Source: Candidatus Bipolaricaulota bacterium
GTDB lineage: Bacteria > Bipolaricaulota > Bipolaricaulia > UBA7950 > UBA9294
DNA: 64,000 nucleotides
Direction of reading: 5' to 3'
NCBI GenBank assembly: GCA_023132915.1
Contig: JAGLXM010000075.1
Coordinates: forward strand, 1,165-65,164
Position numbers and translations under genes: made by a program. The notes beneath the pieces were generated by a model. It saw only the letters and a program-made list of their open reading frames with translations, was not told where the DNA came from and made no database searches. Position 1 is the first letter of the stretch. Each line of letters starts with the position of its first letter. Positions 1,637 through 53,179 of the stretch are shown here, in pieces.

Positions 1637-1646
1637 CGCAAAGGCG

Positions 1647-1669
1647 GACCGATGACCGAGGACAGGTGA
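1647..1669. repeat. Left arm of the inverted repeat bracketing the four-helix-bundle ORF
   Basis: GACCGATGACCGAGGACAGGTGA (heptamer-periodic GACCGAT/GACCGAG/GACAGGT) pairs at 19 of 23 positions with 2044-2066. Confidence 0.65.
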
Positions 1670-1679
1670 CCGAAAACAG

Positions 1680-2090
1680 ATGTCCACCACATACAAGTTC
1701 CAGGATCTGCGGGTGTACAAGTTAGCATTGGAGTATGTGGATACCGTGTACAAGTTGAGCGGGAGCCTGCCGCAGTCGGAGCACTTTAATCTCCGATCGC
1801 AACTGGAACGAGCAGCAACTTCTGTGGTGCTAAACATCGCAGAAGGGTCAACGGGGCAAAGTAATGCAGAACAGAACCGTTTTCTAGGGCTAGCACTGAG
1901 ATCTTACTTAGAAACGATAGCCTGTCTTGACATTATTGGACAGCGAGGCTACCTAGCGAGTAATGCAACTACAGAAGTAAGGAAACTGGGGCATGAGCTT
2001 TTCGTCAAGCTGCAGTCTTTCCGGCGGGCTTTGAAGGCTCCCCTCTCCGGTCCTCGGTCTTCAGTCTCCCATCAGGAGGTCGAATCATGA
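1680..2090 (+). CDS. Four-helix-bundle protein (23S rRNA intervening-sequence protein family, PF05635-like)
   Basis: 136 aa. FQDLRVYKLALEYV...LRSQLERAATSVVLNIAEGS...RFLGLALRSYLETIACLDI matches the family pattern. Its stop overlaps the ATG of the wzt remnant (ATGA). Confidence 0.85.
   Translation: MSTTYKFQDLRVYKLALEYVDTVYKLSGSLPQSEHFNLRSQLERAATSVVLNIAEGSTGQSNAEQNRFLGLALRSYLETIACLDIIGQRGYLASNATTEVRKLGHELFVKLQSFRRALKAPLSGPRSSVSHQEVES
2044..2066. repeat. Right arm of the inverted repeat bracketing the four-helix-bundle ORF (inside its 3' end)
   Basis: TCTCCGGTCCTCGGTCTTCAGTC is complementary to 1647-1669 (19/23). Confidence 0.65.
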
Positions 2091-2239
2091 CCGACACAGC
2101 TATCAGAGTCGAGAACCTCTCCAAACGCTACCGCATCGGCCAATACGTTGGCAGCGGTGCTTCCAATTGTCTCAGGCCTTGGGGGTTGTCGAGCGAGGAG
2201 CACAAGGTGATTGGTGATATGGTTGGGGAGGAAGAATAG
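2087..2239 (+). pseudogene. 5' remnant of a wzt allele (first ~25 codons), then unrelated sequence to a stop
   Basis: MTDTAIRVENLSKRYRIGQYVGSGA.. versus intact Wzt MSNNIAIRVENLSKRYRIGQYVGSGA.. The nucleotide match gagaacctc..aaacgctaccgcatcggccaatacg..ggcagcggtgc is near-identical to 3207-3256. Confidence 0.75.
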
Positions 2240-2241
2240 GA

Positions 2242-2604
2242 ATGGTTACCCGGATCAAGAAAGTCGATCGCTTAGTGATCCAAGAAATTGTGGATCGCAT
2301 AGTTGCTTCTGTTCACCCGGAGAAGATCATCCTTTTCGGCTCCTACGCCTATGGCCAGCCCCACAATGATAGCGACCTCGACATTCTTGTTATCGTGGAG
2401 TCATGTCTTCCCCGATACAAGCGAGCCGTGCCCATCTACAACTCCTTGGCTGGGTTGCTCATACCCAAGGACGTGGTTGTGTATACGCCGGAGGAGGTCG
2501 AGGCCTGGAGCAATGTCCCGCAAGCGTTCATTACAACCGTGATGAATAAAGGAAGGATTCTTTATGAAAAACAGCAAAGCCGACCTGGTTCGCGGATGGC
2601 TTGA
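2242..2604 (+). CDS. Nucleotidyltransferase-domain protein (MNT-type antitoxin)
   Basis: 120 aa. ..LFGSYAYGQPHNDSDLDILVIV.. is the GS-X-DxD minimal nucleotidyltransferase motif. Overlaps the HEPN partner. Confidence 0.85.
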   Translation: MVTRIKKVDRLVIQEIVDRIVASVHPEKIILFGSYAYGQPHNDSDLDILVIVESCLPRYKRAVPIYNSLAGLLIPKDVVVYTPEEVEAWSNVPQAFITTVMNKGRILYEKQQSRPGSRMA

Positions 2605-2974
2605 GAAAGCAAGAAGAGATCTTCTTACAGCGGAGAGAGGGCTAAACTCTGCGGAGCCGTTTACGGATATAGTATGCTTCCACGCCCAGCAAGCGACAGA
2701 GAAGCACTTAAAGGCCTACTTGCTTTGGCATGGAATCGAATTCCCCAGGACACACGCCCTTGAAGACCTCGTGCTTCTTGCGGCTGAGAAGGATGCTGAC
2801 TTCGCACTGCATAAAGACGAGGTGACAATGCTTACCCCTTACGCGGTGGAGACTCGTTACCCCGAGTTCGAAGAGCCTTTGCTGGAGGATGCAAGAGAGA
2901 TGGTTCGTATTGCAAGAGGAATCCGAGACTTTGTGTTGGTGAAGCTGCCCGAAACGCTTACAGGCACGGAATAA
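2564..2974 (+). CDS. HEPN-domain protein (toxin partner of MNT)
   Basis: 136 aa. ..CFHAQQATEKHLKAYL...PRTHALEDL.. is a HEPN R-x4-6-H-like motif. Overlaps the MNT gene by 41 nt. Confidence 0.85.
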   Translation: MKNSKADLVRGWLEKARRDLLTAERGLNSAEPFTDIVCFHAQQATEKHLKAYLLWHGIEFPRTHALEDLVLLAAEKDADFALHKDEVTMLTPYAVETRYPEFEEPLLEDAREMVRIARGIRDFVLVKLPETLTGTE

Positions 2975-3046
2975 TGACGTATGAGGTAGTATCATGCCAC
3001 CGCTTGTTGCAGCTAGAATTTTGTGGGAGATGGAAGGTGAATTCTG

Positions 3047-3125
3047 ATCCGCAATTCACATTTCGAAACTGCCGTTTTCCTCTTGCGATTCGAAATTCGC
3101 TTTTCGCAATTCGAAATTGGAGCTT
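3047..3125. repeat. Low-complexity repeat upstream of wzt (GCAATTCGAAAT-type words)
   Basis: ccgcaattcacatttcgaaa .. gcgattcgaaattcgc ttttcgcaattcgaaattgg, with repeated TTCGAA cores just 5' of the wzt start. Confidence 0.45.
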
Positions 3126-3179
3126 TTCAATCCTCAATGCATATCTCAACGAATATAACAAACGGAACAAATCAGACTA

Positions 3180-4535
3180 ATGAGTAACAATATTGCCATC
3201 CGTGTTGAGAACCTCAGCAAACGCTACCGCATCGGCCAATACGTCGGCAGCGGTGCGCAATACAAGACCCTGCGCGAGAGCCTGACCAATGCTGTCTCCG
3301 CGCCCCTGCATTGGCTACGCCAGACAGGAGACAGAAGACGGAAGACCGATCTCCCGTCGCCAGCCCCCCGTCTCCGGTCCTCTGTCGCCGGTCAGCCGTC
3401 TACCGACGGCTACATCTGGGCCCTCAAGGACGTTTCTTTCGAGGTGGGACACGGCGAGGTGGTGGGCATCATCGGTAGAAACGGTGCGGGGAAGAGTACG
3501 CTTCTAAAGGTGTTGACCCGTATCACGGAGCCCACCGAAGGGCGGGCGGAGCTAAGCGGCCGTGTGGGGAGTCTGCTGGAAGTAGGGACGGGATTTCACC
3601 CTGAACTCACCGGGCGAGAGAATGTATACTTGAGCGGTGCGATTCTTGGGATGGCACGAAAAGAGATTGATCGGAAGTTTGACGAGATTGTCGACTTCTC
3701 CGGAGTGGAGAAGTTCATTGATACGCCGGTCAAGCGCTATTCCAGCGGTATGCGCGTCAGGCTCGGGTTTGCGGTGGCTGCCCACCTGGAGCCGGAGATT
3801 CTATTGATAGATGAAGTTCTGGCGGTGGGAGACGTAGCGTTCCAGAAAAAATGTCTAGGGAAAATGGAAGATGTGGCCCGGGGTGGCAGAACTGTGCTTT
3901 TTGTGTCACATAATATGGGCATGATAACCATTCTCTGTGAAAAAGCGATATTACTAACGGAAGGGCGTATTGACTTTATGGGGCCAGCTCAACAGACCGT
4001 AAGCACGTATTTGGCTAACTTTAGCGCAGATGCTGGCCTGAAAAGGAGATGGAGTTTTGAAGAAGCCCCTGGCGAAGAGAATGTCAAAATAAGAAGCGTT
4101 GCGATAACTGATCATCTGGGTATTGAGAAACCGTATTTTTCGACCGCTGAACCGATATTCGTTACGATAGAGTATTGGGTTTTAGCTGATGACATTCCAG
4201 TCAACGTAGGATTCAGTTTGCTTGACAAAGAAGATAATTGGGTTTGTGCGGTCGGCAATTATGAGGAGACAAGATCAAAGCCAATTCGAAAGAGTGGATT
4301 ATACAGGTCGAAATGCACAATTCCTGGGAATTTGTTGAATAGTGGCAGGCATTCAATCACAGTGACGGCAGTAAGAAATCTTACAGATCTTCAGGTGAGA
4401 ATATCTCATTGTGTTGCCTTTGAAGCAGTGGACGATCGTCGAGTTCACCCGTACTCTGGTAGATGGGGAGGAATTATAAAACCCGAATTTGAGTGGCATA
4501 GCGAGAAGGTTGGCGATGTTGGAGGAGAGGAATAG
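3180..4535 (+). CDS. wzt: O-antigen/polysaccharide ABC exporter ATP-binding protein Wzt with C-terminal carbohydrate-binding-type extension
   Basis: 451 aa. Walker A GRNGAGKST, signature YSSGM, Walker B LLIDEVLAVGD, then ~180 aa of beta-rich C-terminal domain (..VKIRSVAITD..FVTIEYWV..NVGFSLLDKE..). Confidence 0.9.
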   Translation: MSNNIAIRVENLSKRYRIGQYVGSGAQYKTLRESLTNAVSAPLHWLRQTGDRRRKTDLPSPAPRLRSSVAGQPSTDGYIWALKDVSFEVGHGEVVGIIGRNGAGKSTLLKVLTRITEPTEGRAELSGRVGSLLEVGTGFHPELTGRENVYLSGAILGMARKEIDRKFDEIVDFSGVEKFIDTPVKRYSSGMRVRLGFAVAAHLEPEILLIDEVLAVGDVAFQKKCLGKMEDVARGGRTVLFVSHNMGMITILCEKAILLTEGRIDFMGPAQQTVSTYLANFSADAGLKRRWSFEEAPGEENVKIRSVAITDHLGIEKPYFSTAEPIFVTIEYWVLADDIPVNVGFSLLDKEDNWVCAVGNYEETRSKPIRKSGLYRSKCTIPGNLLNSGRHSITVTAVRNLTDLQVRISHCVAFEAVDDRRVHPYSGRWGGIIKPEFEWHSEKVGDVGGEE

Positions 4536-4566
4536 GTACTTTGAATCTCCATCCGGAAGGCGAGGA

Positions 4567-5781
4567 ATGAATACTAATAAACGTCTTTCTGTGCATCATA
4601 TCGGGGGAAGGTCTGGGAGTAGAGCGTTTCCCGTTTTAAGGAGGTTCGAAGAAGACATTATAAATGTGCTCTACGATGCCGATCCTGACTGTCTTGCGCA
4701 AATCCAGGAGAGAAATCAAAACCTCGGATCAGAACTTCATGTTCTGCCATATTGCTTGGGTGATGCCTGTAAACAAGCTCTGTTCAATATTAACTACGAC
4801 CCATATACCAGTTCACTCTATGACCCAAACCCTGACTACAATTCATTCTATAGCACTCAGAGGGACCATGACTACATTTTTTCAGAAGCCACTAGGGTCA
4901 TGGAGAAACGTCGCGTTGAGACTGTGAGCATAGACTACATTTTCCAATCAAAAAACGTTCCAATGCCGCCACCTGATTTTCTTTCGATCGATACGCAGGG
5001 ATCAGAATACGACATACTACTGGGAGCGAAAGAGACTCTAGAATCAAGTGTCGTAGCATTGGTTATCGAGGTTGAGTTTCATCCAATCTATAGAGGTCAA
5101 AGACTCTTTGGGGACTTGGTAAAACTACTGTCCGAGCAAGGATTTGACTTTGTAAGGTTTCTTCATACGGGCGAGTTGTCCCCATTCAGAGCCCCGATTG
5201 GCCTCCGTGGTGAAGGGTTTCACATATGGGCTGAGGCCCTTTTCTTCAGACGGATAGATAATATGGATAGAATTGGAGACGAACTTAGACGCTACGTCAT
5301 GTTGAGAAAACTAGCCTTCATAGCTATCATATTTAACCAATTTGAATATGGCTTGCAATGTTTGAGCCGATGCAGAGCCCTAGGGATTCAAGATTCAATT
5401 GTGGAGGAATTAGAGGATCTCTCCTATTGCAAGTTCTTGAGGGATCTTGAAACGAAAATGAAAGGGATGCCAGTAGTCTTCCCCGAGACATTTGCTTCAA
5501 AATACACATTTGAGGCAAGTAAAGCACGCTTTGAAAGGTGTTTTGCTCATACTAACACAGGAGTGATACGCAGTATCAAAGCAGTACTGAAGCCGATTCC
5601 CATCCTGTTTCCGTTACTAAAGGGGATTAAACAAGGATTCATCAAGGTAGCTACTGCTGTTAAGTCGATTTCGTTGAAGAGATATTCTGAGGTTGAGGCT
5701 CTTTTGATTAGTTACGGCTTAAAGAGTCAAGCGGAGACACTTCGGGAGAATAGGGTTGTTCAATCGCAATTCTGTGAATAG
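4567..5781 (+). CDS. FkbM-family methyltransferase
   Basis: ..HHIGGRSGS.. and ..PDFLSIDTQGSEYDILLGA..ALVIEVEF.. motifs. Paralog of 14571..15788. The track ORF begins at 4489, but ATG 4567 has an RBS-like ggaaggcgagg and matches the paralog's length. Confidence 0.8.
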   Translation: MNTNKRLSVHHIGGRSGSRAFPVLRRFEEDIINVLYDADPDCLAQIQERNQNLGSELHVLPYCLGDACKQALFNINYDPYTSSLYDPNPDYNSFYSTQRDHDYIFSEATRVMEKRRVETVSIDYIFQSKNVPMPPPDFLSIDTQGSEYDILLGAKETLESSVVALVIEVEFHPIYRGQRLFGDLVKLLSEQGFDFVRFLHTGELSPFRAPIGLRGEGFHIWAEALFFRRIDNMDRIGDELRRYVMLRKLAFIAIIFNQFEYGLQCLSRCRALGIQDSIVEELEDLSYCKFLRDLETKMKGMPVVFPETFASKYTFEASKARFERCFAHTNTGVIRSIKAVLKPIPILFPLLKGIKQGFIKVATAVKSISLKRYSEVEALLISYGLKSQAETLRENRVVQSQFCE

Positions 5782-5918
5782 TTGTCGTTTTTTGGCCCTT
5801 TTGCGCTCAGTCTGGAGCAGAATCGCCGGAAAAGCGTAAAGCGATCTCCAGCCATTTCCAGCCCAGATGAAACGATGCCGATAATGCTAGCTAGCTTCAA
5901 TCTCAAGGAGTTACGATA

Positions 5919-7109
5919 ATGTCCCACTCACAACAGTACCTTAAGCAAGTAGCTCAGATTGCACAAGCTATCGAGCATGAAACCGTGGAAAGAATCGCAG
6001 TAGGTCTGGGTCAGTTGCGCGACAGGGGCGGGCGGTTGTTCCTGTTGGGAGTAGGAGGGGGCGCTGCTAACTGCAGTCACGCCGTCAACGACTTTCGGAA
6101 ACTTACCGGTATTGAGGCCTATAGCCCTTGCGACAACGTCGCAGAGTTGACCGCTCGGACCAACGACGAAGGATGGTCTACGGTGTTCGAGGCCTGGCTG
6201 CGAACTAGTAAAGCGAACGAGAAGGACGCGGTGTTCGTGTTCTCTGTCGGGGGTGGCGACGCCGATCGCGATGTGAGCGTTAATATCGTTCGTGGTCTAG
6301 ACGAAGCAAAGCGTCGCGGCCTAACAATTTACGGAATTGTGGGCCGGGACGGAGGATATACCAAGCAAGTGGGTGACGAGGTGATTGTAGTGCCAATGGT
6401 GGATTCGGGTCACGTCACTCCACACACAGAGTCCTTCCAAGCAGTCATCTGGCACTGTATTGTCTGCCATCCCAGTCTTATGATCCAAGAGGGCAAGTGG
6501 GAGAGCTTGGCTACAACCAAGGTCTCAGCACCTCTGAGCCGGGCGGTGTTTCTGGATCGGGATGGCGTTATCAACCTCGCAGTGCTGCATAATGGCCGTC
6601 CCTACCCCCCATCTTCAGTCGATGAACTGGAGTTCCTGCCAGGAGTTTCTGAAGCGATCAATGCGTTGCATCAAGCTGGTTTTCGCATAATCGTAGCGAC
6701 GAACCAACCGGATGTTGCTACGGGAGTGCAGCGACGTGAAGTAGTGGAGGCTATACACGAACGCATCCGCCGTGCGTTCCCGATTGACGACATCAAAGTC
6801 TGTTATCACGTCGATCAGGACGGCTGCACATGCCGAAAGCCGAAGCCGGGAATGCTCTTGGAAGCGGCGGAAGAGTGGTCACTGAACCTCGAGCAATCAT
6901 TCATGGTAGGCGACCGCTGGCGTGACATAGAGGCCGGCCGAGCTGCGGGGTGTAGAACTATTCTGGTCAAGAGCAACTACGCTGAGCAACAGGCTGGAAA
7001 GCCTGACGCAATTGTTAGTTCATTGCTGGAGGCGAGTGCTTTTATTCTGACAAATAGCGTACAGGATACCCCAGCGGGAGGTAAACTATGCCAGATCTCA
7101 GAGATGTGA
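5919..7109 (+). CDS. Fusion of a SIS-domain phosphoheptose isomerase (GmhA-like) and D,D-heptose 1,7-bisphosphate phosphatase (GmhB-like)
   Basis: N-terminal half LFLLGVGGGAANCSHAVNDFRK (SIS). C-terminal half VFLDRDGVIN..VATNQPDVA..CYH..CTCRKPKPGM..MVGDRWRDIEAG (HAD/GmhB with Zn-site cysteines). Confidence 0.8.
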   Translation: MSHSQQYLKQVAQIAQAIEHETVERIAVGLGQLRDRGGRLFLLGVGGGAANCSHAVNDFRKLTGIEAYSPCDNVAELTARTNDEGWSTVFEAWLRTSKANEKDAVFVFSVGGGDADRDVSVNIVRGLDEAKRRGLTIYGIVGRDGGYTKQVGDEVIVVPMVDSGHVTPHTESFQAVIWHCIVCHPSLMIQEGKWESLATTKVSAPLSRAVFLDRDGVINLAVLHNGRPYPPSSVDELEFLPGVSEAINALHQAGFRIIVATNQPDVATGVQRREVVEAIHERIRRAFPIDDIKVCYHVDQDGCTCRKPKPGMLLEAAEEWSLNLEQSFMVGDRWRDIEAGRAAGCRTILVKSNYAEQQAGKPDAIVSSLLEASAFILTNSVQDTPAGGKLCQISEM

Positions 7110-7813
7110 AAGTAAAAATCTTCGCGGATGGAGCTGACCTGAGTGTTATCACGCGGATGTCTAAAGATCCGCTCATCAAAGGGTTCACCACGAATCCGAC
7201 ACTGATGCGCAAAGCAAATGTGCGCGACTACCGAAGGTTTGCTCTTGAAGTTCTCAACGTTGTTCCCGATCGCCCGGTCTCTTTGGAGGTTTTCTCCGAC
7301 GATTTCTCCGAGATGGAGCAGCAGGCGCTTGCGATCGCGTCGTGGGGCGAAAACGTGTATGTGAAGATTCCGGTTACCAATACTCACGGTGAGTTTTCCG
7401 GTCCGCTGATCAAGCGGCTTTCGGCTGCTGGTGTGCAAGTCAATGTGACTGCACTGTTGACGACCGAGCAGGTTGCGAAGGTAGCAAATTGCTTGTCCGA
7501 CGACACAAAAGCCTTCGTCTCGGTTTTCGCAGGCCGTATTGCCGATACCGGCCGCGATCCGATCCCGATCATGGCGCAGGCTGTTAAGTTGTTGAGTTCG
7601 CATCCAAAGGCCAAGCTGATTTGGGCCAGCCCACGTGAGCTGCTGAACATTTTTCAGGCAGATTCTACTGGCTGCCACATTATCACTGCTACAAGTGATG
7701 TGTTGGCTAAGCTTCACCTGATTGGTAAAGACCTCGATACCTTCTCGCTCGAAACCGTTCAGATGTTTCGGCGGGATGCGCTTGAGGCTGGGTATGCTAT
7801 TGAGATCTCTTAA
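7088..7813 (+). CDS. Transaldolase/fructose-6-phosphate aldolase family protein
   Basis: 241 aa. VKIFADGADL...GFTTNPTLM...VKIPVT.. is a class 3B transaldolase pattern. Confidence 0.8.
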   Translation: MPDLRDVKVKIFADGADLSVITRMSKDPLIKGFTTNPTLMRKANVRDYRRFALEVLNVVPDRPVSLEVFSDDFSEMEQQALAIASWGENVYVKIPVTNTHGEFSGPLIKRLSAAGVQVNVTALLTTEQVAKVANCLSDDTKAFVSVFAGRIADTGRDPIPIMAQAVKLLSSHPKAKLIWASPRELLNIFQADSTGCHIITATSDVLAKLHLIGKDLDTFSLETVQMFRRDALEAGYAIEIS

Positions 7814-7906
7814 CCGAGGATGTTGTCCTGAAAGCATGATTGCCGAGGCCGACTGCGCAAATAGGTTTCGAACATCCCACTCGCGATTAAAGAAAGGGGG
7901 AGAACT

Positions 7907-8905
7907 GTGAGGAAAATCCTAGTTACGGGCGGGGCTGGATACGTAGGCTGCGTTCTTGTGCCTAAACTCTTAGATGCCGGCTATTCCGTCGTGGTCTATG
8001 ATCTCATGCTCTTCGGGTCCGAGGGGCTTCCTTCGCATCCAAATCTCCAGGTTGTCAAGGGAGATGTGAGAGATGCCGCAAGTTTTTCTACAGCGGTGGC
8101 GGGGGTTGACAGCGTGATCCACCTCGCTTCCATCTCCAACGATCCCAGCTTTGAGCTGGATCCCGCTCTCAGCAAGGCTATTAACTACGACTGCTTCGAG
8201 CCCATGATCCTGGCTTGTAAATCTGCTGGCGTAAGGCGGTTTATCTACGCTTCGACCAGCTCGGTGTATGGGGTCAGCAATGCGCCCGAGGTCACCGAAG
8301 AGCACCCGCTGGTTCCGCTTACGGACTACAATAAGTACAAAGGTCTATCTGAGCCGATCTTGCTGCGACACCAGGCGTCCGATTTCACTACAGTGATTAT
8401 CCGGCCAGCTACAATCTGCGGCTATTCTCCGCGGATGCGTTTCGATCTCAGTGTGAACATTTTGACGAACCATGCTGTCAACAAGCGGGGGATAACAGTC
8501 TTTGGAGGAAGTCAGAAGCGCCCCAACATTCACGTTGATGACATCACCGAGCTGTACGTTCAGTTGCTTGATTTCCCAGACGAGATGATTGCAGGTGAGA
8601 TATTCAATGCAGGCTATCAGAACAATACGATAGCCGAACTGGCGGAGATGGTGCGCACTGTTGTGGAGCAGGAAATGCCGGAAAAAGCGCCAATATCGAT
8701 CGAGACCACGCCAAGTAACGACCCTCGCTCATATCATGTGACCTCCAAAAAGATCGCGGAGAAGCTTAGTTATGTGCCCAAGAGAACAGTCGAAGATGCT
8801 GTAAGAGACATATGTAACGCGTTCAAGGCGGGTAAGCTACTGAACAGCCTTGAAGACGATCGGTACGTGAATGTGAAGACGATAAAGAAGATCGGTCTGA
8901 AATGA
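7907..8905 (+). CDS. NAD-dependent epimerase/dehydratase (extended SDR)
   Basis: 332 aa. [11 protein letters not shown] Rossmann motif, YxxxK as YNKYK. GTG start. Confidence 0.8.
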   Translation: MRKILVTGGAGYVGCVLVPKLLDAGYSVVVYDLMLFGSEGLPSHPNLQVVKGDVRDAASFSTAVAGVDSVIHLASISNDPSFELDPALSKAINYDCFEPMILACKSAGVRRFIYASTSSVYGVSNAPEVTEEHPLVPLTDYNKYKGLSEPILLRHQASDFTTVIIRPATICGYSPRMRFDLSVNILTNHAVNKRGITVFGGSQKRPNIHVDDITELYVQLLDFPDEMIAGEIFNAGYQNNTIAELAEMVRTVVEQEMPEKAPISIETTPSNDPRSYHVTSKKIAEKLSYVPKRTVEDAVRDICNAFKAGKLLNSLEDDRYVNVKTIKKIGLK

Positions 8906-12378: not shown

Positions 12379-13664
12379 TGATTGGCTTTGCTGGGCTTTC
12401 TCACCTGGGTATCGTGTCGAGCATAGCTGCTGCTTCAAAGGGCTGTGAAATAGTCGCCCATGATCCCGATCCAGCGCTTTGCGACAGGCTTAGTAACGGA
12501 CACCTGCCGATCTTGGAGCCAGATCTGCCCGATCTCTTGGCAGCCAACCGTTCGCGCATCCGATTCACCTCCGATGCTACTGCACTGAGCAAATGCGAAC
12601 TGATTGTTTTCTCTGTGGACGTAGCCACTGATAAGGACAACTACAGTGATCTTTCGCCTCTTCAGCAGTTGATCGACAAGGTTGTTGCTCACGTGTCGCC
12701 GGGTACCGTGCTGGTCGTTCTGAGCCAGGTGCCGCCCGGGTTTACCCGTAAGCAGGCCGACAAGCTCAAACGTCTCCACGATGACCATGGTGTTCAATTA
12801 TTTTGCCAGGTGGAAACACTGATCTTTGGCTGTGCCGTTGAACGCGCCTTACATCCCGAACGTTTTATAATCGGATGCTCAAATCCTGAGCTGCCGATAC
12901 CTCCTCCGTTGAATACTTATCTGAAATCATTTGGTTGTCCAATTTTACCCATGCGCTATGAGACTGCGGAACTTGCAAAGATATCGATCAACATGTGTTT
13001 AGTAGCATCAATCAGCGTGGCAAACACTCTGGCTGAAATTTGTGAAAAAATTGGCGCCGACTGGTCCGAGATCGTGCCTGCGCTTCGCCTTGACAAACGC
13101 ATCGGTCAATATGCCTATCTGAATCCCGGTCTTGGGATTTCAGGCGGCAATTTGGAACGTGACCTTGCTACGGTGTTGCGCTACGCGGAGAAATACAAAA
13201 CGGATGGGGGTGTGGTCGCATCATGGATAAAAAATTCCCACCATCGCAAAGAGTGGGCATGGGCTACCTTCAAAAACCTTGGACTTGATAAAAATCCGGC
13301 TGAGAGGATAGCCGTGTTGGGTCTTACTTATAAGGAAAATACACATTCCCTCAAAAACTCTCCCTCACTGGTTTTTTTGTCGCATTTAACTGATCGTGAG
13401 GTAGTGGCCTTCGACCCGGTAGCGGTATCTGATGCCACAGGTCCTAAAGTTCTTCGTACAAGTACTGCACTCGAGGCTATTAAGGGGGTCGATGTTTTGG
13501 CTATCATGACCCCCTGGCCGGAGTTTTGCTTGATTACCCCAGAAATTCTTGTGCAAAACATGATTGGCCGCACGGTGATTGATCCTTATCGGATGCTGGA
13601 TGGCATGGCGCTAAAGGCTCAAGGTTTCATTTACGCGACGCTGGGAGCGCCGGTTAGGGAATAA
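12378..13664 (+). CDS. Nucleotide-sugar dehydrogenase (UDP-glucose/GDP-mannose dehydrogenase family)
   Basis: 428 aa. N-terminal GFAGLSHLG and a C-terminal ..LGLTYKENTHSLKNSP.. UDPG_MGDP_dh_C-like segment. Confidence 0.8.
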   Translation: MIGFAGLSHLGIVSSIAAASKGCEIVAHDPDPALCDRLSNGHLPILEPDLPDLLAANRSRIRFTSDATALSKCELIVFSVDVATDKDNYSDLSPLQQLIDKVVAHVSPGTVLVVLSQVPPGFTRKQADKLKRLHDDHGVQLFCQVETLIFGCAVERALHPERFIIGCSNPELPIPPPLNTYLKSFGCPILPMRYETAELAKISINMCLVASISVANTLAEICEKIGADWSEIVPALRLDKRIGQYAYLNPGLGISGGNLERDLATVLRYAEKYKTDGGVVASWIKNSHHRKEWAWATFKNLGLDKNPAERIAVLGLTYKENTHSLKNSPSLVFLSHLTDREVVAFDPVAVSDATGPKVLRTSTALEAIKGVDVLAIMTPWPEFCLITPEILVQNMIGRTVIDPYRMLDGMALKAQGFIYATLGAPVRE

Positions 13665-13667
13665 TGT

Positions 13668-14567
13668 ATGTTAACACATCTTAACATCGAACCTGTTTTA
13701 CCTACCCGTGTTGTCATTCTGGGTGCAGGCGGTTTTGTCTCTTCTGCCGCACAGCGCAGGCTTGAAGCACAGAATGTACCGGTACTGGCGCTGACGCAGG
13801 CAATGTTAGACTTAACACATAAGGATGCTGGTGCACTATTGGCAAACCTGTTGCGCACGGACGATGCGCTCCTATTCGTAGCCGCTAAAGCCCCGGTCAA
13901 GTCCGAGGCGATGCTAATCGAAAACCTGCGCATGGGTGAGGCAGTGTGTGAGGCGCTGAAGAATGCCCCTGTCAACCATGTGGTGTATATCAGTTCCGAT
14001 GCTGTTTACGCCGACAGTGATACACCGCTTACCGAGCGTTCCTGCGCCCAGCCTGGCTCTCTGCATGGGGTGATGCACCTCGCTCGGGAAGTGATGCTCG
14101 CCAACGCCTGGCAGGGAGCGCTTTGCTTTTTACGGCCAACATTGATCTATGGGGAGGATGATCCACATAATGGCTATGGACCTAATCGTTTCTTAAGGCT
14201 CGCTGCGAAGGGTGAAGAAATTGTACTCTTCGGAGAGGGCGAAGAACGCCGCGATCATTTGTGGGTGGAGGATGTTGCAGAGATTGTGAGCCGGGTGCTG
14301 TTGCACCGAAGTACAGGTATTCTCAATATAGCCACTGGAGAGGTAGTATCGTTCCGCGATATCGCGGAGCAGGTAGCGCGGTTATCAGCCCGTCCGCCGA
14401 AGATCAAAGGCACTCCCCGCGTTGGACCGATGCCTCACAACGGCTATCGAGCATTTAACATTGCTTCCTTATATTCGGCATTTCCAGATTTTCAATGCTT
14501 ACCTCTATCTGAAGGGCTGAAGCTTTGCTATAACGGTTTAAATGCAATGACTAAAAAGGATAATTAA
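13668..14567 (+). CDS. NAD-dependent epimerase/dehydratase-family protein
   Basis: 299 aa. VVILGAGGFVSS and ..YISSDAVYAD.. ; nucleotide-sugar context. Confidence 0.7.
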   Translation: MLTHLNIEPVLPTRVVILGAGGFVSSAAQRRLEAQNVPVLALTQAMLDLTHKDAGALLANLLRTDDALLFVAAKAPVKSEAMLIENLRMGEAVCEALKNAPVNHVVYISSDAVYADSDTPLTERSCAQPGSLHGVMHLAREVMLANAWQGALCFLRPTLIYGEDDPHNGYGPNRFLRLAAKGEEIVLFGEGEERRDHLWVEDVAEIVSRVLLHRSTGILNIATGEVVSFRDIAEQVARLSARPPKIKGTPRVGPMPHNGYRAFNIASLYSAFPDFQCLPLSEGLKLCYNGLNAMTKKDN

Positions 14568-39610: not shown

Positions 39611-40696
39611 ATGAGCAAAGTACTAATTACTGGCATAACAGGGCAGGATGGTTCCTACCTAGCTGAGCTATTGCTCCATAAAGGATATGAGGTTCATGGC
39701 CTTATCCGTCGCGCCAGCACCTTCAACACAGACAGGATCGATCATATCTATCGAGATCCCCATGATCCTAATGCACGGCTCTTTCTTCACTACGGGGACC
39801 TCGCGAACGGCGAGCAGCTCTCAAACCTGATCTACAATGTGAAGCCGGACGAGATTTATCACTTGGGAGCCCAAAGCCATGTGCGGGTGAGCTTTGACAC
39901 TCCGGAGTACACTGGTGATGTAACTGGTTTAGGCACCACGCGCATTCTGGAAGCCATCCGCCGAAGCGGTATCAAGACTCGGTATTACCAGGCCTCTAGT
40001 TCGGAGATGTTCGGCGCTGCTGCCCCACCACAGAGTGAGAACACGCCCTTCCGGCCGCAGAGCCCTTACGCTTGCGCGAAAGTGTACGCTTATTGGATGG
40101 CAGGTAACTATCGGGATGGGTACAATCTTTTTGCCTGCAACGGCATTCTCTTCAACCATGAGTCACCAAGGCGAGGTGAGACCTTCGTTACCCGTAAGAT
40201 TACACGCGCTATTGCCCACATCCTTGAGGGGAGGCAGAAGAAGCTCTACCTGGGGAATCTCAAGGCCAAGCGCGACTGGGGCTATGCTCCAGAGTATGTC
40301 GAGGCGATGTGGCTGATGCTCCAACAGGATCGCCCTGACGATTTCGTGATCGGAACCGGAGAGACGCACTCGGTGCAGGAGTTCCTGGAGGAGGCGTTCG
40401 CCTACGTGAATCTGGATTGGCAGGAGTACGTGGAGATTGACCAACGCTACTTCCGACCGACCGAGGTTGAGTTCCTGCTGGCCGATCCTTCGAAGGCTAA
40501 GGAAAAACTGGGATGGGTGCCGAAGATCACGTTCAAGGAACTTGTAAGGATCATGGTCGATGCTGACATGGAGGCGATTGGTCTAGAGCCTATTGGCGAG
40601 GGCAAGAGGATCATGGAAGAGAAGTTTACCGGTTGGCATCGCTGGGACACGGGCGTGAAGGCGGTGTATGAGAATACGAGGAGAGCAGTTGAGTAG
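39611..40696 (+). CDS. gmd: GDP-mannose 4,6-dehydratase
   Basis: 361 aa. [34 protein letters not shown], ..SSEMFG.., ..[12 protein letters not shown].., ..[19 protein letters not shown].. . Confidence 0.95.
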
Positions 40697-40797
40697 GGAA
40701 ATTGTTGAGTAGTTGAGTGGGAAAAGCGAAGGAACGGAGGGCCAGGTGAAGAGGGAAATGGTTAAGTGGAGGAGTGGTTGAGTGGGAGGAATGGATG
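40687..40797. repeat. GTTGAGTRG-word low-complexity repeat; left terminal inverted repeat of the gmd|fcl insertion
   Basis: agttgagtagggaaattgttgagtagttgagtgggaaaagc .. ggttaagtggaggagtggttgagtggg. Its outer part is the reverse complement of 42006-42039. It supplies the gmd stop codon. Confidence 0.65.
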
Positions 40798-41262
40798 AGT
40801 CCACGTCGTCTATATCTAGACACCAGTGTCTATAACCGACCCTTCGATGGCCTCTCACAAGCACGAGTCTGGCTCGAAGCGTTAGCCTTCGCTACTATAC
40901 TGCAGATGATTGAATTGGGCGGTGTAGAATTAGTAAGCTCTGAGGTATTAGAGTTTGAGAACAGCAGGAATCCCTTTTCCCATAGAAGGGCGTGGGTAAG
41001 CTTTTATCTGAGTTTGGCCAAAGATTACCAGGAATTGGATGAGTCGATCCGTAAGCGAGCGCAAGGTTTGGAAAGCAAGAGATTGGAACCACTCGATGCT
41101 TTACATCTGGCCTGTGCAGAGGGAGCTGAGGCTGAATATTTCATAACCTGCGATGATCGGATCATAAAGAGATACCAAGGGGAAGCACTGAAAGTGATGA
41201 ACCCCGTGAATTTTGTGATCAGTGAGGTGATAGGAGATGGCGGAGATCAAGGTGAACAGTGA
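40795..41262 (+). CDS. PIN-like domain protein (putative toxin)
   Basis: About 155 aa. LYLDTSVYNRPFD.. N-terminal acidic motif, ..DALHLACAEGAEAEYFITCDDRIIKR.. C-terminal PIN-like motif. Confidence 0.6.
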   Translation: MSPRRLYLDTSVYNRPFDGLSQARVWLEALAFATILQMIELGGVELVSSEVLEFENSRNPFSHRRAWVSFYLSLAKDYQELDESIRKRAQGLESKRLEPLDALHLACAEGAEAEYFITCDDRIIKRYQGEALKVMNPVNFVISEVIGDGGDQGEQ

Positions 41263-41452
41263 TCAGGAGATCCTTCGAGAGGCCGAAGAGGTGCTGCGGG
41301 TACATCTGGGTCCGGCCAAAGCGACTCGCTTTTGGATCGCTCTAGGCGGTGGGGCTGGAGACTACCTGCAAATTAAAGAAACGCTCTTCAAAGGCGAGAC
41401 TGTCGATACCCTGTACGAGAAAATAGCAGAGCAGAAGGGGGAGGAGAGATAG
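41237..41452 (+). CDS. Small partner protein of the PIN gene (putative antitoxin, uncharacterised family)
   Basis: 71 aa. Overlaps the PIN gene by 26 nt. A paralogous 3' end occurs at 2..187. Confidence 0.45.
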   Translation: MAEIKVNSDQEILREAEEVLRVHLGPAKATRFWIALGGGAGDYLQIKETLFKGETVDTLYEKIAEQKGEER

Positions 41453-42051: not shown

Positions 42052-43056
<1,005 letters not shown>

Positions 43057-44433: not shown

Positions 44434-45109
44434 ATGAAGAGCAGAGCATTTCAGCAGGTAATCAAGCGGACTTTCGACCTCATAGCAAGTCTTGTCGGCC
44501 TCATCCTCTTGGCCATTCCCTTCGCTCTCATCGCCCTGGCGATCAAGCTTGATTCTAAGGGGCCCGTATTTTTCAGGCAGGAGCGGGTGGGGAAAGATGG
44601 CCGAATTTTTAAGCCCTGGAAGTTCCGAACGATGGTCGTGGGGGCGGTGGAGCAGGGGCTAGGTTATAACGTTGCCAAGGACGACCTGCGGATCACCGGG
44701 GTTGGACGATTCCTACGCGAGTGGGGTCTGGACGAGCTGCCCCAGCTTATTAACGTTCTGAGGGGGGAGATGAGCCCTGTAAGCCTTCGCCCAACTTTGA
44801 AATATCAGGTTGACCATTACGATGACTCCCAGCGCAGGCGGCTTCTGGTCAAACCAGGAATTGCCGGTTGGGCCCTTATCCACGGACGAAATCTTCCCTC
44901 TTGGAAAGAGCGCATCAAGTACGGCGTTCTGGTATGTAGAGCATCGGACAATTTGGCTTGATTTTTGGATTATGCTCAAGACGCTCTGGGTTGTGTTGAT
45001 CAAACGAGAAGGTATTTACGGAGAGACTGGAATGAACGACCCCTTTGTTGAACCATTGTCTCCTAAACGCAGAAATGGGGTGTGTGGAGAACAAACTCAT
45101 GAACACTGA
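44434..45109 (+). pseudogene. PglC/WbaP-type phosphoglycosyltransferase (bacterial sugar transferase) inactivated by a +1 frameshift and motif loss
   Basis: Collinear with the intact copy 52117..52776. VGPRP is changed to VSLRP. An extra nucleotide near 44927 (tacggcgttctgg versus tacgacgtctgg) shifts the frame, and the rest of the protein is read in ORF 44810..45109. Confidence 0.85.
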
Positions 45110-49969: not shown

Positions 49970-51320
49970 ATGAAACTAGGTGCATGCGTAAGAAGGTTAG
50001 GGTTTTCCGTCTGGGATCGGCTGCATGGAGCTCCGGTCCACCACCACCTGGAAGAGTTAGAGCAAGCTCAGACCGTGAGTCCTGAGGAGCTTGAGCTCTG
50101 GCAGAGAGAGCGACTGTACGCTCTGCTATGTCACGCGCGGGACACGACTGACTTTTACCGCCAGCTCATCCCCCAGGACTTGTCGCCAGAAGAGAGCTTT
50201 AACGTCGTGCATGCCCTACCTCTCATGACCAAGGCTCAGATCAAAGCTGATCCTGAAGCCTTTATGGCAGGTGCCTTTCCCCCGCACGAGGCTCCATCGG
50301 GGCACCACCAGCGGGTTCACTGGGACGCCATTCGTGTTTTGGATGGACCGCAACCGGAGAGCTCGCGTGCGCGCGGAGATCTTGTACTTTGGACGCTGGG
50401 CGGGATATGAGATCGGAATGCGTCACTGCTACCTGCGCTACCTGTTTGGTCGGCCCAAGGGGTTCCTGCAACGCTGGCTAGAGAACCAACTCATCATTGA
50501 CACTACCTCCGTGGACGAGGCCAAGCTGGAGAAGATCCGGACCCTGCTCACTCGCTCAAGGACGCAAGTGCTTATCAGTCATCCCTCGGTGTTGAGCCTC
50601 CTAGCTCAGCACTGCCTCCGCCGGGGGATTCCTTTTCGGGATTTCTCTATGAGGGCGGTCATCTCCGTGGGGGAGCCCCTGCTGCCCGAAACTCGGGCCT
50701 CTATCGAGGACGCCTTCGGATGCCCGGTCTTCGATCGCTACAGCGCATGGGAGTTTGGGGTGATCGCGAGCGAGTGCGAGAGGCAACAATTGCATCTCAA
50801 CGCAGGAAGTCTGTACATCGAATTCCTCCCTCATGAGGGTCACCGCCCCACTGCGGCTGGAGAGCCTACTCGGTTCGTTGTGACCGACTTGTTCAACTAT
50901 GAAATGCCGTTCATCCGCTATGAGATTGAGGACGTAGTGGTGCTGGATAGAAAGCCTTGTCCCTGCGGTCGTAAGTCTCCCCTCCTCAAAGGCGGTCTAC
51001 GGCCGTGGGTCGATCAGATCACGTCCCCAAACGGCGCATGGCTGGACCCGCTGGGCATCGAAGCCATGTTGTGAGATCTCCATGAGATCCGACAGTTTCA
51101 GTTCGTCCAACAGTCTCAGAGTAGCTATATGATCAAGGTGGTCCCGGACGAAGGGTTTGACGAAGCGGACGTTCAGAAGATTGTGCGCCGTTATCAAGAG
51201 GTGTTGGGTCCGGAGGCGATGATTAAGGTCGAGGAGGTGAATGAGATTCTGCCGTTACCCTCGGGCAAGTGGTCCTATATCCGCTCTGAGGTCCGAGAGG
51301 CACAGATCGATGAGACTTAG
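49970..51320 (+). pseudogene. CapK/phenylacetate-CoA ligase-family gene (copy 3, different subtype) broken by at least two frameshifts
   Basis: Three successive frames carry the N-terminus (MKLGACVRRLGF..TDFYRQLI..), the core (..TTSGFTGTPFVFWMD..FDRYSAWEFGVIASEC..PCPCGRKSPLLK..) and the C-terminus (..FQFVQ..IKVEEVNEILPLPSGKWSYIRSE). Confidence 0.7.
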
Positions 51321-51525
51321 ATGCGTGGAAGTTCTCAAGATGGAACCATTGAGGGGACGTATGGGATATACTCTGACCGGATTTCGTCCGCTTCTCTCGT
51401 GGAGCTTATCACGTCATGTATGAGATCTTGAGGGCTAAGAACCGTGAAGATCTGAAGGTTGGAAAGTGTGAATGGGGGAAGGCTTGTCGAGTGGTTCCTA
51501 GAGGAAAAAGCGGAGGTTCCTCCGA

Positions 51526-51708
51526 ATGAGCTCTCAGCTATTCCTTAAGCGAGGGTTAGACTTTACTATAAGTTTTGTCGGGCTCATCCTCCTTGCTATG
51601 CCCTTTGCCATCATCGCTCTAGCGATCAAGCTCGACTCCAAGGGCCCAGTTTTCTTCAGGCAGGAGGGGACCAGAGGTTGTCTTGAGCATGGTGACTTGC
51701 TATCTTAG
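51526..51708 (+). pseudogene. 5' stub (about 46 codons) of a third PglC-type phosphoglycosyltransferase copy
   Basis: MSSQLFLKRGLDFTISFVGLILLAMPFAIIALAIKLDSKGPVFFRQE matches the N-termini of 44434.. and 52117.., then diverges to a stop. Confidence 0.8.
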
Positions 51709-51746
51709 AGGTGCCGTTAAATCATCGGCCTAAAGGAGGGAGCAAT

Positions 51747-52013
51747 ATGCCCTTGAAATTGATTAGAACCGAGAGAACAAGCGAGGAAGATCTGCAGAGG
51801 TTCAAGGCGGATCAGGAGGACTTTGAGTGGCTTGTCAGGCATTCGCGAGAGATTGAAGAGCAGTCTAAGGGGAAATATATCGCTGTCGTGAATAAAGAGG
51901 TCTTTGTGGGAGATAGCTTTGAGGAAGCGGAGCAGAAGGCTAAGGCAAAATATCCGGAGCGCGATTCCTATGTGGAATTCATCCCGCTGAAGCCGCGGGT
52001 GATGGTTCTATGA
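51747..52013 (+). CDS. Small hypothetical protein (DUF5678-like pattern)
   Basis: 88 aa from ATG 51747 (RBS aaaggaggg). ..WLVRHSREIEEQSKGKYIAVVNKEVFVGDSFEEAEQKAKAKYPERDSYVEFIP.. . Family assignment is from memory of the pattern only. Confidence 0.45.
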   Translation: MPLKLIRTERTSEEDLQRFKADQEDFEWLVRHSREIEEQSKGKYIAVVNKEVFVGDSFEEAEQKAKAKYPERDSYVEFIPLKPRVMVL

Positions 52014-52120
52014 TCTTCCACGGCCGATACCGTGTCGCCATCTTCGACAGGGGCAAAGATGATGTGATCCTGCTCGACCATCCGGATAGCTACCGAATCG
52101 AACGCTCTCTTGAAAGATGA
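52010..52120 (+). CDS. 36-codon ORF coupled by ATGA overlaps to both neighbours
   Basis: MIFHGRYRVAIFDRGKDDVILLDHPDSYRIERSLER. ATG 52010 overlaps the upstream stop, and its TGA 52118-52120 overlaps ATG 52117 of the sugar transferase. Confidence 0.3.
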   Translation: MIFHGRYRVAIFDRGKDDVILLDHPDSYRIERSLER

Positions 52121-52776
52121 AGGGTTCCATCGGTTTGCCTGTTCAGCTAATTCTAAAACGGCTTGTCGATATCCTGCTAAGCCTCATTGGGCTTATCCTC
52201 TTGATTGTTCCCTTCGCTGTGATCGCCCTGGCGATGAAGCTTGACTCCAGGGGCCCAGTGTTCTTCCGGCAAGAGCGTGTGGGAAAAGATGGCAGGGTAT
52301 TTAAGCCTTGGAAGTTCCGCACGATGGTTGTTGGGGCGGTGAAGCAAGGGCTGGGTTACAACATCGCTCAGGGTGATCCGCGGATTACTAAGGTTGGGCG
52401 GTTCTTGAGAAGCTGGGGGGTAGATGAACTTCCCCAGCTCATCAATGTGTTGAAGGGCGAGATGAGCATCGTCGGCCCGCGGCCGACCTTAAAATACCAG
52501 GTCGAGAGGTACAACGACTTCCAACGCAAACGTCTTCTGGTCAAGCCTGGGATCACCGGCTGGGCCCTGATCCATGGGCGAAATCTTTTGACCTGGGAGG
52601 AGCGAATCAAATACGACGTCTGGTATGTAGATCATCGGACAATCTGGCTTGATCTTTGGGTCATGCTCAAGACGTTATGGGTGGTGCTGATCAAGCGGGA
52701 AGGGGTCTACAGCTCAGAAGGGATCAATGACCCATTTGTGACACCGCCTCAGGAAGGGCCACCCCATGATGTGTAA
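52117..52776 (+). CDS. Undecaprenyl-phosphate sugar phosphotransferase, small monotopic PglC/WbaP-C type (intact copy)
   Basis: 219 aa. ..GPVFFRQERVGKDGRVFKPWKFRTM.., ..DELPQLINVLKGEMSIVGPRP.., ..KPGITGWA.. . Confidence 0.9.
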   Translation: MKGSIGLPVQLILKRLVDILLSLIGLILLIVPFAVIALAMKLDSRGPVFFRQERVGKDGRVFKPWKFRTMVVGAVKQGLGYNIAQGDPRITKVGRFLRSWGVDELPQLINVLKGEMSIVGPRPTLKYQVERYNDFQRKRLLVKPGITGWALIHGRNLLTWEERIKYDVWYVDHRTIWLDLWVMLKTLWVVLIKREGVYSSEGINDPFVTPPQEGPPHDV

Positions 52777-53179
52777 CTCAAAGGGTTTCCATTCCTGGTC
52801 CAATGTAAAATTGCTGAAGAGGCTAGGGGAAAAGGAGATTTCGGCTCTTTATGGTGCCTGGTCTATATAGTTTGTATAATAGATTCGGTAGTTTGCGACA
52901 GAGGCGGTGTGCGATGGGTAAATGTAAGGTTCATAAGTTAGGTTTAGATTCATGAAGGTTAATAGAGGAGTACGTCGCGTGGGGCGTAGAAGAGAAGACT
53001 AAAGCACAAGTGGCAAAGGACTTTGAGTTTGTCCTGGATGTGTGATATGTGGAGCATCTACCATTGCGAGGGGAGCCGCAGATGATCGCTCCGGCGGCCT
53101 GGAAAATCTGCAAGCGGGAAGGCATCGGTCAGCCGGAACACGCCACAATGTCAGAATTAAAGCAAACCCAATATTCATC

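Follow-up and report, generated by a model that had tools for sequence, protein, structure and literature searches.

We analyzed a stretch of 64,000 nucleotides from the metagenome-assembled genome (MAG) of a Candidatus Bipolaricaulota bacterium (GenBank assembly GCA_023132915.1, contig JAGLXM010000075.1, positions 1,165 to 65,164 of the forward strand), referred to as the window, and focused on positions 51526 to 52776, where the truncated start of a phosphoglycosyl transferase (PGT) gene precedes two small open reading frames (ORFs) and an intact PGT gene. A preliminary description of this DNA had listed four elements, namely a 5′ stub of the transferase gene, an 88-aa DUF5678-like ORF, a 36-codon ORF, and the intact transferase gene. 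The ORF listing, the raw sequence, and Pfam profile matches showed that all four are present on the plus strand and that both of the overlaps between them are real. Each of the two junctions reads ATGA: the start codon of the 36-codon ORF (52010..52120) lies on the stop codon of the DUF5678 gene (51747..52013), and its own stop codon lies on the start codon of the intact PGT gene (52117..52776).

The stub ORF (51526..51708) encodes 60 aa and has kept its strong native Shine-Dalgarno (SD) sequence. Its PGT-homologous part (51526..51666) comprises the re-entrant membrane helix and the KLDSKGPVFFRQE block, that is, the first conserved block of the family, and lacks the Asp-Glu (DE) region. It matched positions 1-40 only of the profile PF02397 (33.8 bits, cut-off 27, E value 3e-8) and is ~76% identical at the DNA level to the start of the intact gene (52135-52275). 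The similarity ends after codon 47 (...GPVFFRQE), so that the stub had been recognized correctly as a PGT start but measured one codon short, at 46 codons to position 51665 instead of 47 codons to position 51666. Beyond this point the frame reads into the leader of the following cassette and terminates after the tail GTRGCLEHGDLLS.

The intact gene encodes 219 aa and matched PF02397 over profile positions 1-178 of 179 with 224 bits and TIGR03025 with 278 bits. Its translation contains LILLIVPFAVIALAMKLDSRGPVFFRQER and VDELPQL, and the three features that were checked for this family, an N-terminal re-entrant helix with a helix-breaking proline, the KLDS.GP.FF.Q.R block, and the catalytic Asp-Glu region, were all found. 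The gene thus codes for a small PglC-like PGT, which is predicted to transfer a sugar-1-phosphate to polyprenol phosphate. It resembles the small monotopic PGTs of the Campylobacter PglC type (PF02397) in that it spans the whole Bac_transf profile, with the re-entrant helix and the DE dyad region (VDELPQ), but differs from them in that it owes its ribosome-binding site and its first ~28 codons to the cassette block.

Between the stub and the DUF5678 gene lies a leader of 80 nt (51667..51746), which forms the left end of this conserved block and carries the SD sequence AAAGGAGGG. The DUF5678 gene is intact, and its product, a putative antitoxin or partner protein, matched PF18929 with 32.9 bits (cut-off 23.2); all 11 of its 11 close homologues have a precomputed match to the same profile. 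The assignment of its ATG start codon is supported by the SD sequence and by the homologues, all of which are 88 aa long.

No Pfam match was obtained for the 36-aa ORF. On contig C37 of the same MAG, the gap between the DUF5678 and PGT genes is ~330 bp longer and encodes a protein with the motif LIDTGADE, and G002, a Candidatus Bipolaricaulota MAG of the same genus, contains a complete 148-codon protease gene whose ATG lies on the DUF5678 stop codon and whose own stop codon lies on the PGT ATG. Alignment with these two copies showed that the 36 residues of the window correspond to residues 1-8 joined in frame to residues 121-148 of the 148-aa protein, with a 336-bp deletion in between. The deletion junction is located at 52033..52034, and in intact alleles the deleted segment has a GATACC microhomology at both of its ends. 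Residues 9-120, including the catalytic DTGA motif, are absent from the window copy. As the remnant lacks this motif, the window does not encode a member of the retropepsin family, and the remnant cannot be an enzyme. This anatomy, including the deletion, is close to certain in our view. The "two tiny coupled ORFs" that had been taken for the cassette are therefore its decayed form: since the 36-codon ORF is a deletion remnant, consisting of the first 8 and the last 28 codons of a retropepsin-like gene, the native cassette is DUF5678 together with the full protease gene.

The intact protease had 66 database relatives, some of which are annotated as retropepsin-like or aspartyl proteases and several of which have protease Pfam matches. 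In an alignment of 49 relatives, G39 and A40 were invariant, D37 was present in at least 90%, and T38 was the consensus residue. An AlphaFold2 model of the 148-aa protein of G002 reached a pLDDT of 90.3, and its top Foldseek matches were the Rickettsia protease APRc (5c9f/5c9b) and retroviral proteases. By motif and fold, the intact homologue is thus retropepsin-like and would be expected to act as a homodimeric protease. With APRc of Rickettsia conorii (RC1339; 5c9f, 5c9b) it shares the fold (Foldseek probability 1.0, TM-score 0.56-0.68), the D-T-G-A motif, and the layout as a single domain of ~130-150 aa that should need to dimerize; it differs from APRc in its sequence (~20% identity), in having no membrane anchor, and in being always paired with DUF5678. 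The curated cut-offs of the protease families were not reached: the C37 copy scored 16.9-18.4 bits with PF13650, PF00077, and PF13975 (cut-offs 20.7-28.2), and the scores with TIGR03698 were 15.8-46.2 bits (cut-off 57.35); TIGR02281 was also among the protease families considered. In PADLOC, the protease gave a weak match to the candidate PDC-M08B (E value 2e-5) and DUF5678 gave none, and no viral carriers of this protease subfamily were found in IMG/VR. A literature search found no link of "retropepsin-like" to "toxin-antitoxin", and the sole mention of DUF5678 was unrelated.

The preliminary description had proposed to look for the usual partner genes of the 88-aa protein, and such a partner exists, as DUF5678 is regularly paired with a retropepsin-like gene. 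The MAG has five further DUF5678-like genes, and downstream of each lies an ORF of 123-161 aa with a DTGA or DTGF motif; in three of these pairs the stop and start codons overlap, in the pair on contig C35 a gap of 20 nt separates the genes, and the first copy on C37 is frameshifted near its start. Among the six DUF5678 loci of the MAG, five have therefore kept a protease partner and the window copy has only the remnant. In at least four other places of the same genome, such pairs occur among other toxin-antitoxin (TA) modules and without a PGT gene. The pairing was also found in more distant public relatives (L016, L034, L039, L040), and one database protein (P0069) is a fusion of DUF5678 and the protease. 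The pairs sit among HEPN/MNT, PIN, ParE, and RelE-like modules, and in other phyla they adjoin unrelated genes. Another diverged pair on C37 (locus L013, 7424-8067), which consists of a 91-aa DUF5678 protein and a 123-aa DTGF protease with an ATGA overlap, lies between C-terminal remnants of glycosyltransferase genes and adjoins a PIN-type pair. C37 itself, a contig of 9 kb, contains TA modules and polysaccharide-gene fragments (epimerase, HEPN, MNT, and GT4 remnants) in synteny with genes that are intact in G002.

The two genes of the cassette have had different fates. DUF5678 is 88 aa long and open in every copy examined, and its ratio of nonsynonymous to synonymous divergence (dN/dS) was 0.08-0.18 in the informative comparisons, which include copies with a destroyed protease gene. 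The protease gene has been lost repeatedly. The window-type deletion is present with identical end points in seven contigs. In the NCBI MAG GCA_012974725.1 (contig JABAHQ010005650.1, loci L014/L047), an independent in-frame deletion left a 25-aa ORF, and in the Anaerolineae MAG contig JBHIEC010000034.1 (L020, 4001-4315), a third deletion placed DUF5678 in frame with the last ~15 protease codons to give a 104-aa ORF; its TAA stop codon and the ATG of the next gene, which is unrelated, overlap as TAATG. Furthermore, the protease is truncated after residue 35 in L015, lost in L038, frameshifted in C37, L027, and L029, and probably also frameshifted in L034 and L040, where the tblastn matches are split. 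The protease is thus the dispensable and probably costly partner, and such dispensability beside purifying selection on DUF5678 is what one would expect of a toxin-antitoxin pair.

Chromosomal TA islets move through homologous recombination in the genes that flank them, and they erode when the toxin gene becomes a pseudogene (Belot et al. 2026, Mol Biol Evol, PMC13617665). Because the repeated loss of the protease with retention of DUF5678 matches this erosion, we call the protease the toxin-like partner. Growth arrest by the protease and its neutralization by DUF5678 are the corresponding putative functions. As in type II TA systems, two small co-oriented genes overlap at stop and start codon and occur in multiple copies with a patchy distribution. 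The likeness to the TA islets of PMC13617665 extends from the small overlapping two-gene operon, patchy and multi-copy among HEPN/MNT, PIN, and ParE modules, to the lack of a mobility gene, the apparent spread by homologous recombination at flanking genes, and the loss of the putative toxin with survival of its partner. Two features set the cassette apart from these islets: the presumed toxin is a retropepsin-like aspartic protease, and the cassette is fused and translationally coupled to a host gene and flanked by the displaced 5′ end of that gene. The locus thereby provides natural-history evidence for an uncharacterized, widespread two-gene family of DUF5678 and a retropepsin-like protease.

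To describe the recurrence of the arrangement, cassette relatives from 22 JGI metagenome loci, G002, C37, and the NCBI MAG were compared. The order stub, DUF5678, protease or protease remnant, PGT was found on C37, in the NCBI MAG, and in 17 of the 22 independently assembled JGI loci; the remaining five are distant relatives without PGT sequence. The conserved block reaches from window position 51667, where the similarity of the stub to PGT ends, to ~52200 at PGT codon ~28 and spans the leader, DUF5678, and the protease gene. It is 92-100% identical in alignments of all close copies and recurs in more than 20 Bipolaricaulota contigs, with two copies per genome. Two long contigs of 59 kb and 178 kb each contain both copies, 20-28 kb apart and in the same orientation, and for this reason the window copy and that on C37 represent two loci of one genome rather than strain noise. 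Among 61 related genomes, only 2 contained the cassette. Five metagenome contigs (L035, L036, L037, L041, L042) end inside the DUF5678 gene, which fits a two-copy repeat that breaks short-read assemblies. The pattern of a 5′ remnant, a cassette, and an intact copy is thus both real and recurrent, with at least nine stub alleles across related loci, and what the relatives show is not simple tandem duplication decay lacking any cassette-like unit: a discrete conserved unit exists, and ordinary duplication decay occurs nearby as well.

The block is embedded in much more diverse flanks. Regardless of the left context, the leader shows 95-100% identity among the window, C37, G002, and the metagenome loci. 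On the left side, at least nine PGT stub alleles with different upstream genes are all cut at the same codon (FFRQ-E/D), and some stubs are mosaics: those of the window, L029, and L030 have a common 5′ part and different 3′ ends, and in that of L021 a 5′ part of its own precedes a C37-type 3′ end. On the right side, the synonymous divergence (dS) among the PGT alleles was 0.7-2.5 over the bodies of the genes, which are under purifying selection (dN/dS 0.09-0.26, mostly 0.09-0.16), compared to 0.05-0.66 over the first ~28 codons (52117..52200 in the window), the limit of the block being evident from sliding identity, alignment, and dS; one group has a PGT gene that breaks off near codon 71-78. 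What lies to the left of the cassette varies independently of what lies to its right. Between the MAG of the window (G000) and G002, rpoB showed a dS of 0.17 (93.6% DNA identity) and DUF5678 a dS of 0.04, with 2 synonymous changes compared to ~10 expected; leader and DUF5678 together were 97.8% identical. The low dS of the cassette relative to rpoB and the diversity of the flanks indicate that the cassette was exchanged after the species split and that the flanks are much older foreign alleles.

The preliminary description had further proposed that the cassette is translationally wired into the transferase gene, and this idea gained support from the start sites. Duplex energies were computed for the 22 nt upstream of each start codon with the anti-SD sequence. 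They amounted to -10.7 kcal/mol for the stub, -12.2 kcal/mol for DUF5678, -6.9 kcal/mol for the protease or 36-aa ORF, and 0.0 for the cassette-linked PGT start in both the window and G002. The cassette-free PGT of G055 had a value of -8.6 with pairing at normal SD spacing, and PGT-A and the second PGT of G002 had values of -5.0 and -6.3, respectively, with pairing 15 nt before the start codon. Since the cassette-linked PGT start has no ribosome-binding site, the PGT is most likely translated by termination-reinitiation from the upstream cassette ORF, on which its expression would then depend. Every copy that is intact or carries an in-frame deletion has preserved the ATGA overlaps, and each of the three independent internal deletions keeps an ORF to the native stop codon overlapping the next start codon (ATGA in both the window type and L014, TAATG in L020). 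If the frame were irrelevant, three of three deletions would be in frame by chance in about 1 of 27 cases (~0.04). We infer that only deletions preserving reinitiation survive while the downstream gene is needed, and the 36-codon ORF probably has no role left other than bringing ribosomes to the PGT start.

Taken together, the explanation that we consider probable is that of a decaying TA-like cassette, DUF5678 plus a retropepsin-like protease, which has become fused to the 5′ end of a PglC-type PGT gene and is exchanged by homologous recombination, displacing resident 5′ ends. The unit would consist of the 80-nt leader, DUF5678, the protease gene, and PGT codons 1 to ~28, joined by ATGA overlaps, and the window copy would have lost the catalytic core of the protease by the 336-bp in-frame deletion between the GATACC microrepeats. 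Exchange between strains and between the two copies per genome would proceed through PGT 5′ sequence on both sides, with the conserved 3′ part of the PGT stub as the left arm and PGT codons 1-28 and beyond as the right arm. The cassette arms correspond to one contiguous PGT stretch in permuted order, the left one to codons ~30-53 and the right one to codons 1-~28. Where the unit meets a resident PGT, the 5′ end of the latter (promoter, SD sequence, and codons 1-47) would be left upstream as a stub. Recombination with a locus of the same architecture would be a simple replacement, recombination with a naive PGT (via a circle or "ends-in") would insert the cassette and leave the resident 5′ end as a stub, and new stub chimeras would likewise result if a deletion joined an upstream PGT paralogue to a stub already present. 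Both the recombination route and the dependence of the PGT on coupling are advanced more tentatively than the explanation as a whole, at slightly less than even confidence.

Further comparisons bear on how the stubs arose. The window-type junction of stub and leader is orthologous in L047, with 76% DNA identity continuing through stub, leader, and DUF5678, and must be old because DUF5678 shows a dS of 0.8 between the two. Some stubs have N-termini of the type borne by the cassette (22 of 25 residues identical in L041 and 20 of 25 in stub3 of L047), which points to repeated displacement. L047 contains four PGT 5′ ends within 7 kb (1297-8900): stub1 is followed by DUF5678 and the 25-aa protease remnant, PGT(1-54) is joined to the 3′ remnant of a GT4 gene, stub3 (1-50) precedes a DUF4160-helix-turn-helix (HTH) cassette, and PGT(1-103) is fused to the 3′ remnant of an acetyltransferase gene. 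In PGT coordinates, no more than 12 nt separate the first three breaks. A locus from another family of the class (G055:C2, L043, ~2129-3726, minus strand) has no stub, and its genes for DUF4160, an HTH protein, and an intact PGT follow one another. Both the window stub and stub1 of L047 find their best match in the N-terminus of that PGT (MRGRLFLKRALDF...), with which they agree in 18 of 27 and 20 of 27 residues, respectively; all cassette-linked PGT bodies are similarly G055-like (75-81%), and this comparison of stub and body is weakened by the uncoupled left and right contexts in L029 and L021. An orthologous cassette-free junction was sought in the genus, and none was found: G001 and G003 are devoid of any PGT, and G002 has the cassette. 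We had also considered a single shared crossover of the Campbell type and dropped it, as the 3′ halves of the window and C37 stubs are only ~83% identical, no better than general PGT conservation.

Several observations weigh against the explanation that we prefer. Three junction types fall into PGT codons 50-55, namely those with the DUF5678 cassette, the DUF4160-HTH cassette, and the GT4 remnant, which plain homologous recombination leaves unexplained; a breakage hot spot or a site-specific step at these codons is possible. Nor would plain homologous recombination predict the situation in G002, where a HEPN-like 5′ fragment (L018, G002:C28, 9770-10200) instead of a PGT stub abuts the same left boundary of the cassette within ~6 nt. 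The orthologous stub pair of the window and L047 had a dN/dS of 0.29 over a dS of 0.8 (47 codons, wide error), below the expectation for a dead remnant, although 3 of ~10 stub types (L024, L032, L036) have lost their start codon or frame. With a chance probability of ~0.04 for three in-frame deletions, the argument for coupling is suggestive. The partner protease scores below the curated cut-offs of protease families, and the putative toxin and antitoxin roles are derived from decay patterns and context.

The recurrent cut in the stubs could alternatively be explained by site-specific integration, in which islets without an integrase of their own, similar to cis-mobilizable elements (CIME), use a tyrosine or serine recombinase in trans and an att site in PGT codons 50-55; they would carry a replacement PGT 5′ end, and repeated insertion would lead to a tandem accretion of stubs. 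This would account for the cut at the same codon in all stubs, for the joining of the DUF4160-HTH cassette and the GT4 remnant to PGT copies within the same 12 nt in L047, for the four PGT starts within 7 kb, and for the different gene fragment at the same left boundary in G002. We consider it rather improbable, as the right end of the block is at PGT codon ~28 and its left end at codon 47/53, leaving no common crossover point, the three junction types have breakpoints 3-12 nt apart, no repeated core longer than general PGT conservation was found, and no recombinase gene lies in or adjoins any copy. The ORF lists around the copies contain no mobility gene in or beside the cassette unit and, with respect to a comparison with integrons, no integrase-like ORF, no dedicated search with attC or IntI models having been made. 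A somewhat better, though still unlikely, alternative is one old accident followed by ordinary shuffling of the locus. A single illegitimate deletion would have joined PGT codon 47 to the leader of a cassette upstream of another PGT, and the diversity would stem from routine exchange of polysaccharide alleles and deletions between tandem PGT paralogues, the cassette being a passive anchor that does not spread. The old orthologous junction in the window and L047, the tandem PGT paralogues in the window, G002, and L047, and the plain duplication decay in the neighborhood are all in agreement with this. Yet a static cassette should not be less diverged than the core genome, and the dS of 0.04 compared to 0.17 speaks for recent exchange; moreover, most stubs resemble recently functional PGT N-termini, and the cassette-type N-termini in L041 and in stub3 of L047 argue for repeated displacement.

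That the whole arrangement is a domesticated operon, in which the membrane hairpin of the 60-aa stub product and DUF5678 regulate the PGT and the protease is dispensable, appears very improbable. The strong SD sequence and open frame of the stub in most alleles, the low dN/dS of the stub pair, the purifying selection on DUF5678 even where the protease is gone, and the tight coupling of all genes would fit such a role. It is difficult to reconcile with the stub types devoid of a start codon or frame, with G002, which has no stub at all, and with the DUF5678-protease pairs that occur elsewhere in the genome without PGT and beside unrelated genes in other phyla. A chimeric join of strain variants during assembly or binning is hardly conceivable: the MAG consists of 354 contigs (91% complete, 7.1% contamination) and the cassette is where several metagenome contigs (L035-L037, L041, L042) end, but the same order and junctions were present in more than 20 independent assemblies, including the 59-kb and 178-kb contigs with both copies. 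We regard the stubs as remnants that are probably refreshed occasionally by recombination with functional PGT genes, and they may conceivably serve as translated leaders. Even on the modest view of a recombination scar next to a decaying TA module, neither the 36-codon ORF nor the stub should be annotated as a gene.

C-terminal displacement and orphan arrays are well known from rhs, cdiA, and type VI secretion system effector loci. The PGT loci resemble these rhs/cdi arrays in that an intact gene stands beside truncated orphans which keep the recombination segment, variable modules are swapped between strains, and successive displacement builds up arrays, as in L047. The stub alleles, the mosaic stubs, the four PGT starts of L047, and the cassette-type N-termini among the stubs all conform to such an array with mirrored polarity. 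The PGT loci differ in displacing a 5′ end upstream in place of a 3′ end downstream, in the lack of any toxin or immunity cargo of its own on the displaced piece, and in the nature of the incoming cargo, which is an unrelated selfish cassette rather than a new domain of one and the same protein. The locus can thus be viewed as the 5′ counterpart, or mirror image, of the 3′ orphan arrays. It also shares with Campbell-type integration and tandem accretion at gene ends an insert flanked by direct repeats of one contiguous target segment, here the left arm with PGT codons ~30-53 and the right arm with codons 1-~28; it is unlike these in that no integrase, att core, or circular form was detected and in that the repeats are only ~76-83% identical within the locus.

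A more speculative and, in our estimate, rather doubtful extension is that cassettes without a recombinase of their own carry a short copy of a host-gene 5′ end, insert by insertion-duplication, and impose an SD-less start, which would make the priming enzyme of surface glycan synthesis a "translational hostage". If true, this would explain the in-frame protease deletions, the piled-up 5′ stubs, and PGT codons 50-55 as a recurrent junction. The locus also illustrates a concrete route by which a selfish cassette can entrench itself in an operon, namely by providing a useful host gene with its translation start. In uncultured bacteria, surface-polysaccharide loci appear to be shuffled with short repeats of gene starts as the recombination handles. 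The new elements of the locus are the protein family, its fusion to the translation start of a host gene, and the recurrent junction.

The locus lies in a surface-polysaccharide cluster with signs of decay, including three copies of a CapK-like ligase gene (one of them broken), an acetyltransferase remnant, and a second PGT paralogue (44434-45109, plus strand). The latter shares 76% aa identity with the intact PGT, is frameshifted near codon 168, and is probably a pseudogene; it is also a possible recombination partner of the stub. In L018 of G002, a transposase gene of the insertion sequence type (12821-13975) and a gene for a four-helix-bundle "IVS protein" (14015-14335) interrupt an AbiEii-like region upstream of a second PGT of that locus. 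A scan of window positions 51000-53100 for sigma-70-type promoters gave no promoter-like site, though in this phylum such a scan carries no information. The window also contains a PIN-domain ORF (162 aa) with an overlapping 71-aa ORF (40774-41452) as an insertion between the genes gmd (39611-40696) and fcl (42073-43056). The PGT locus had been regarded as the second instance of its pattern in the window, and the first one indeed exists: a 62-nt direct repeat of the 5′ end of wzt (2099-2160 and 3195-3256, 89% identical) brackets an MNT/HEPN pair (2242-2604 and 2564-2974, respectively).

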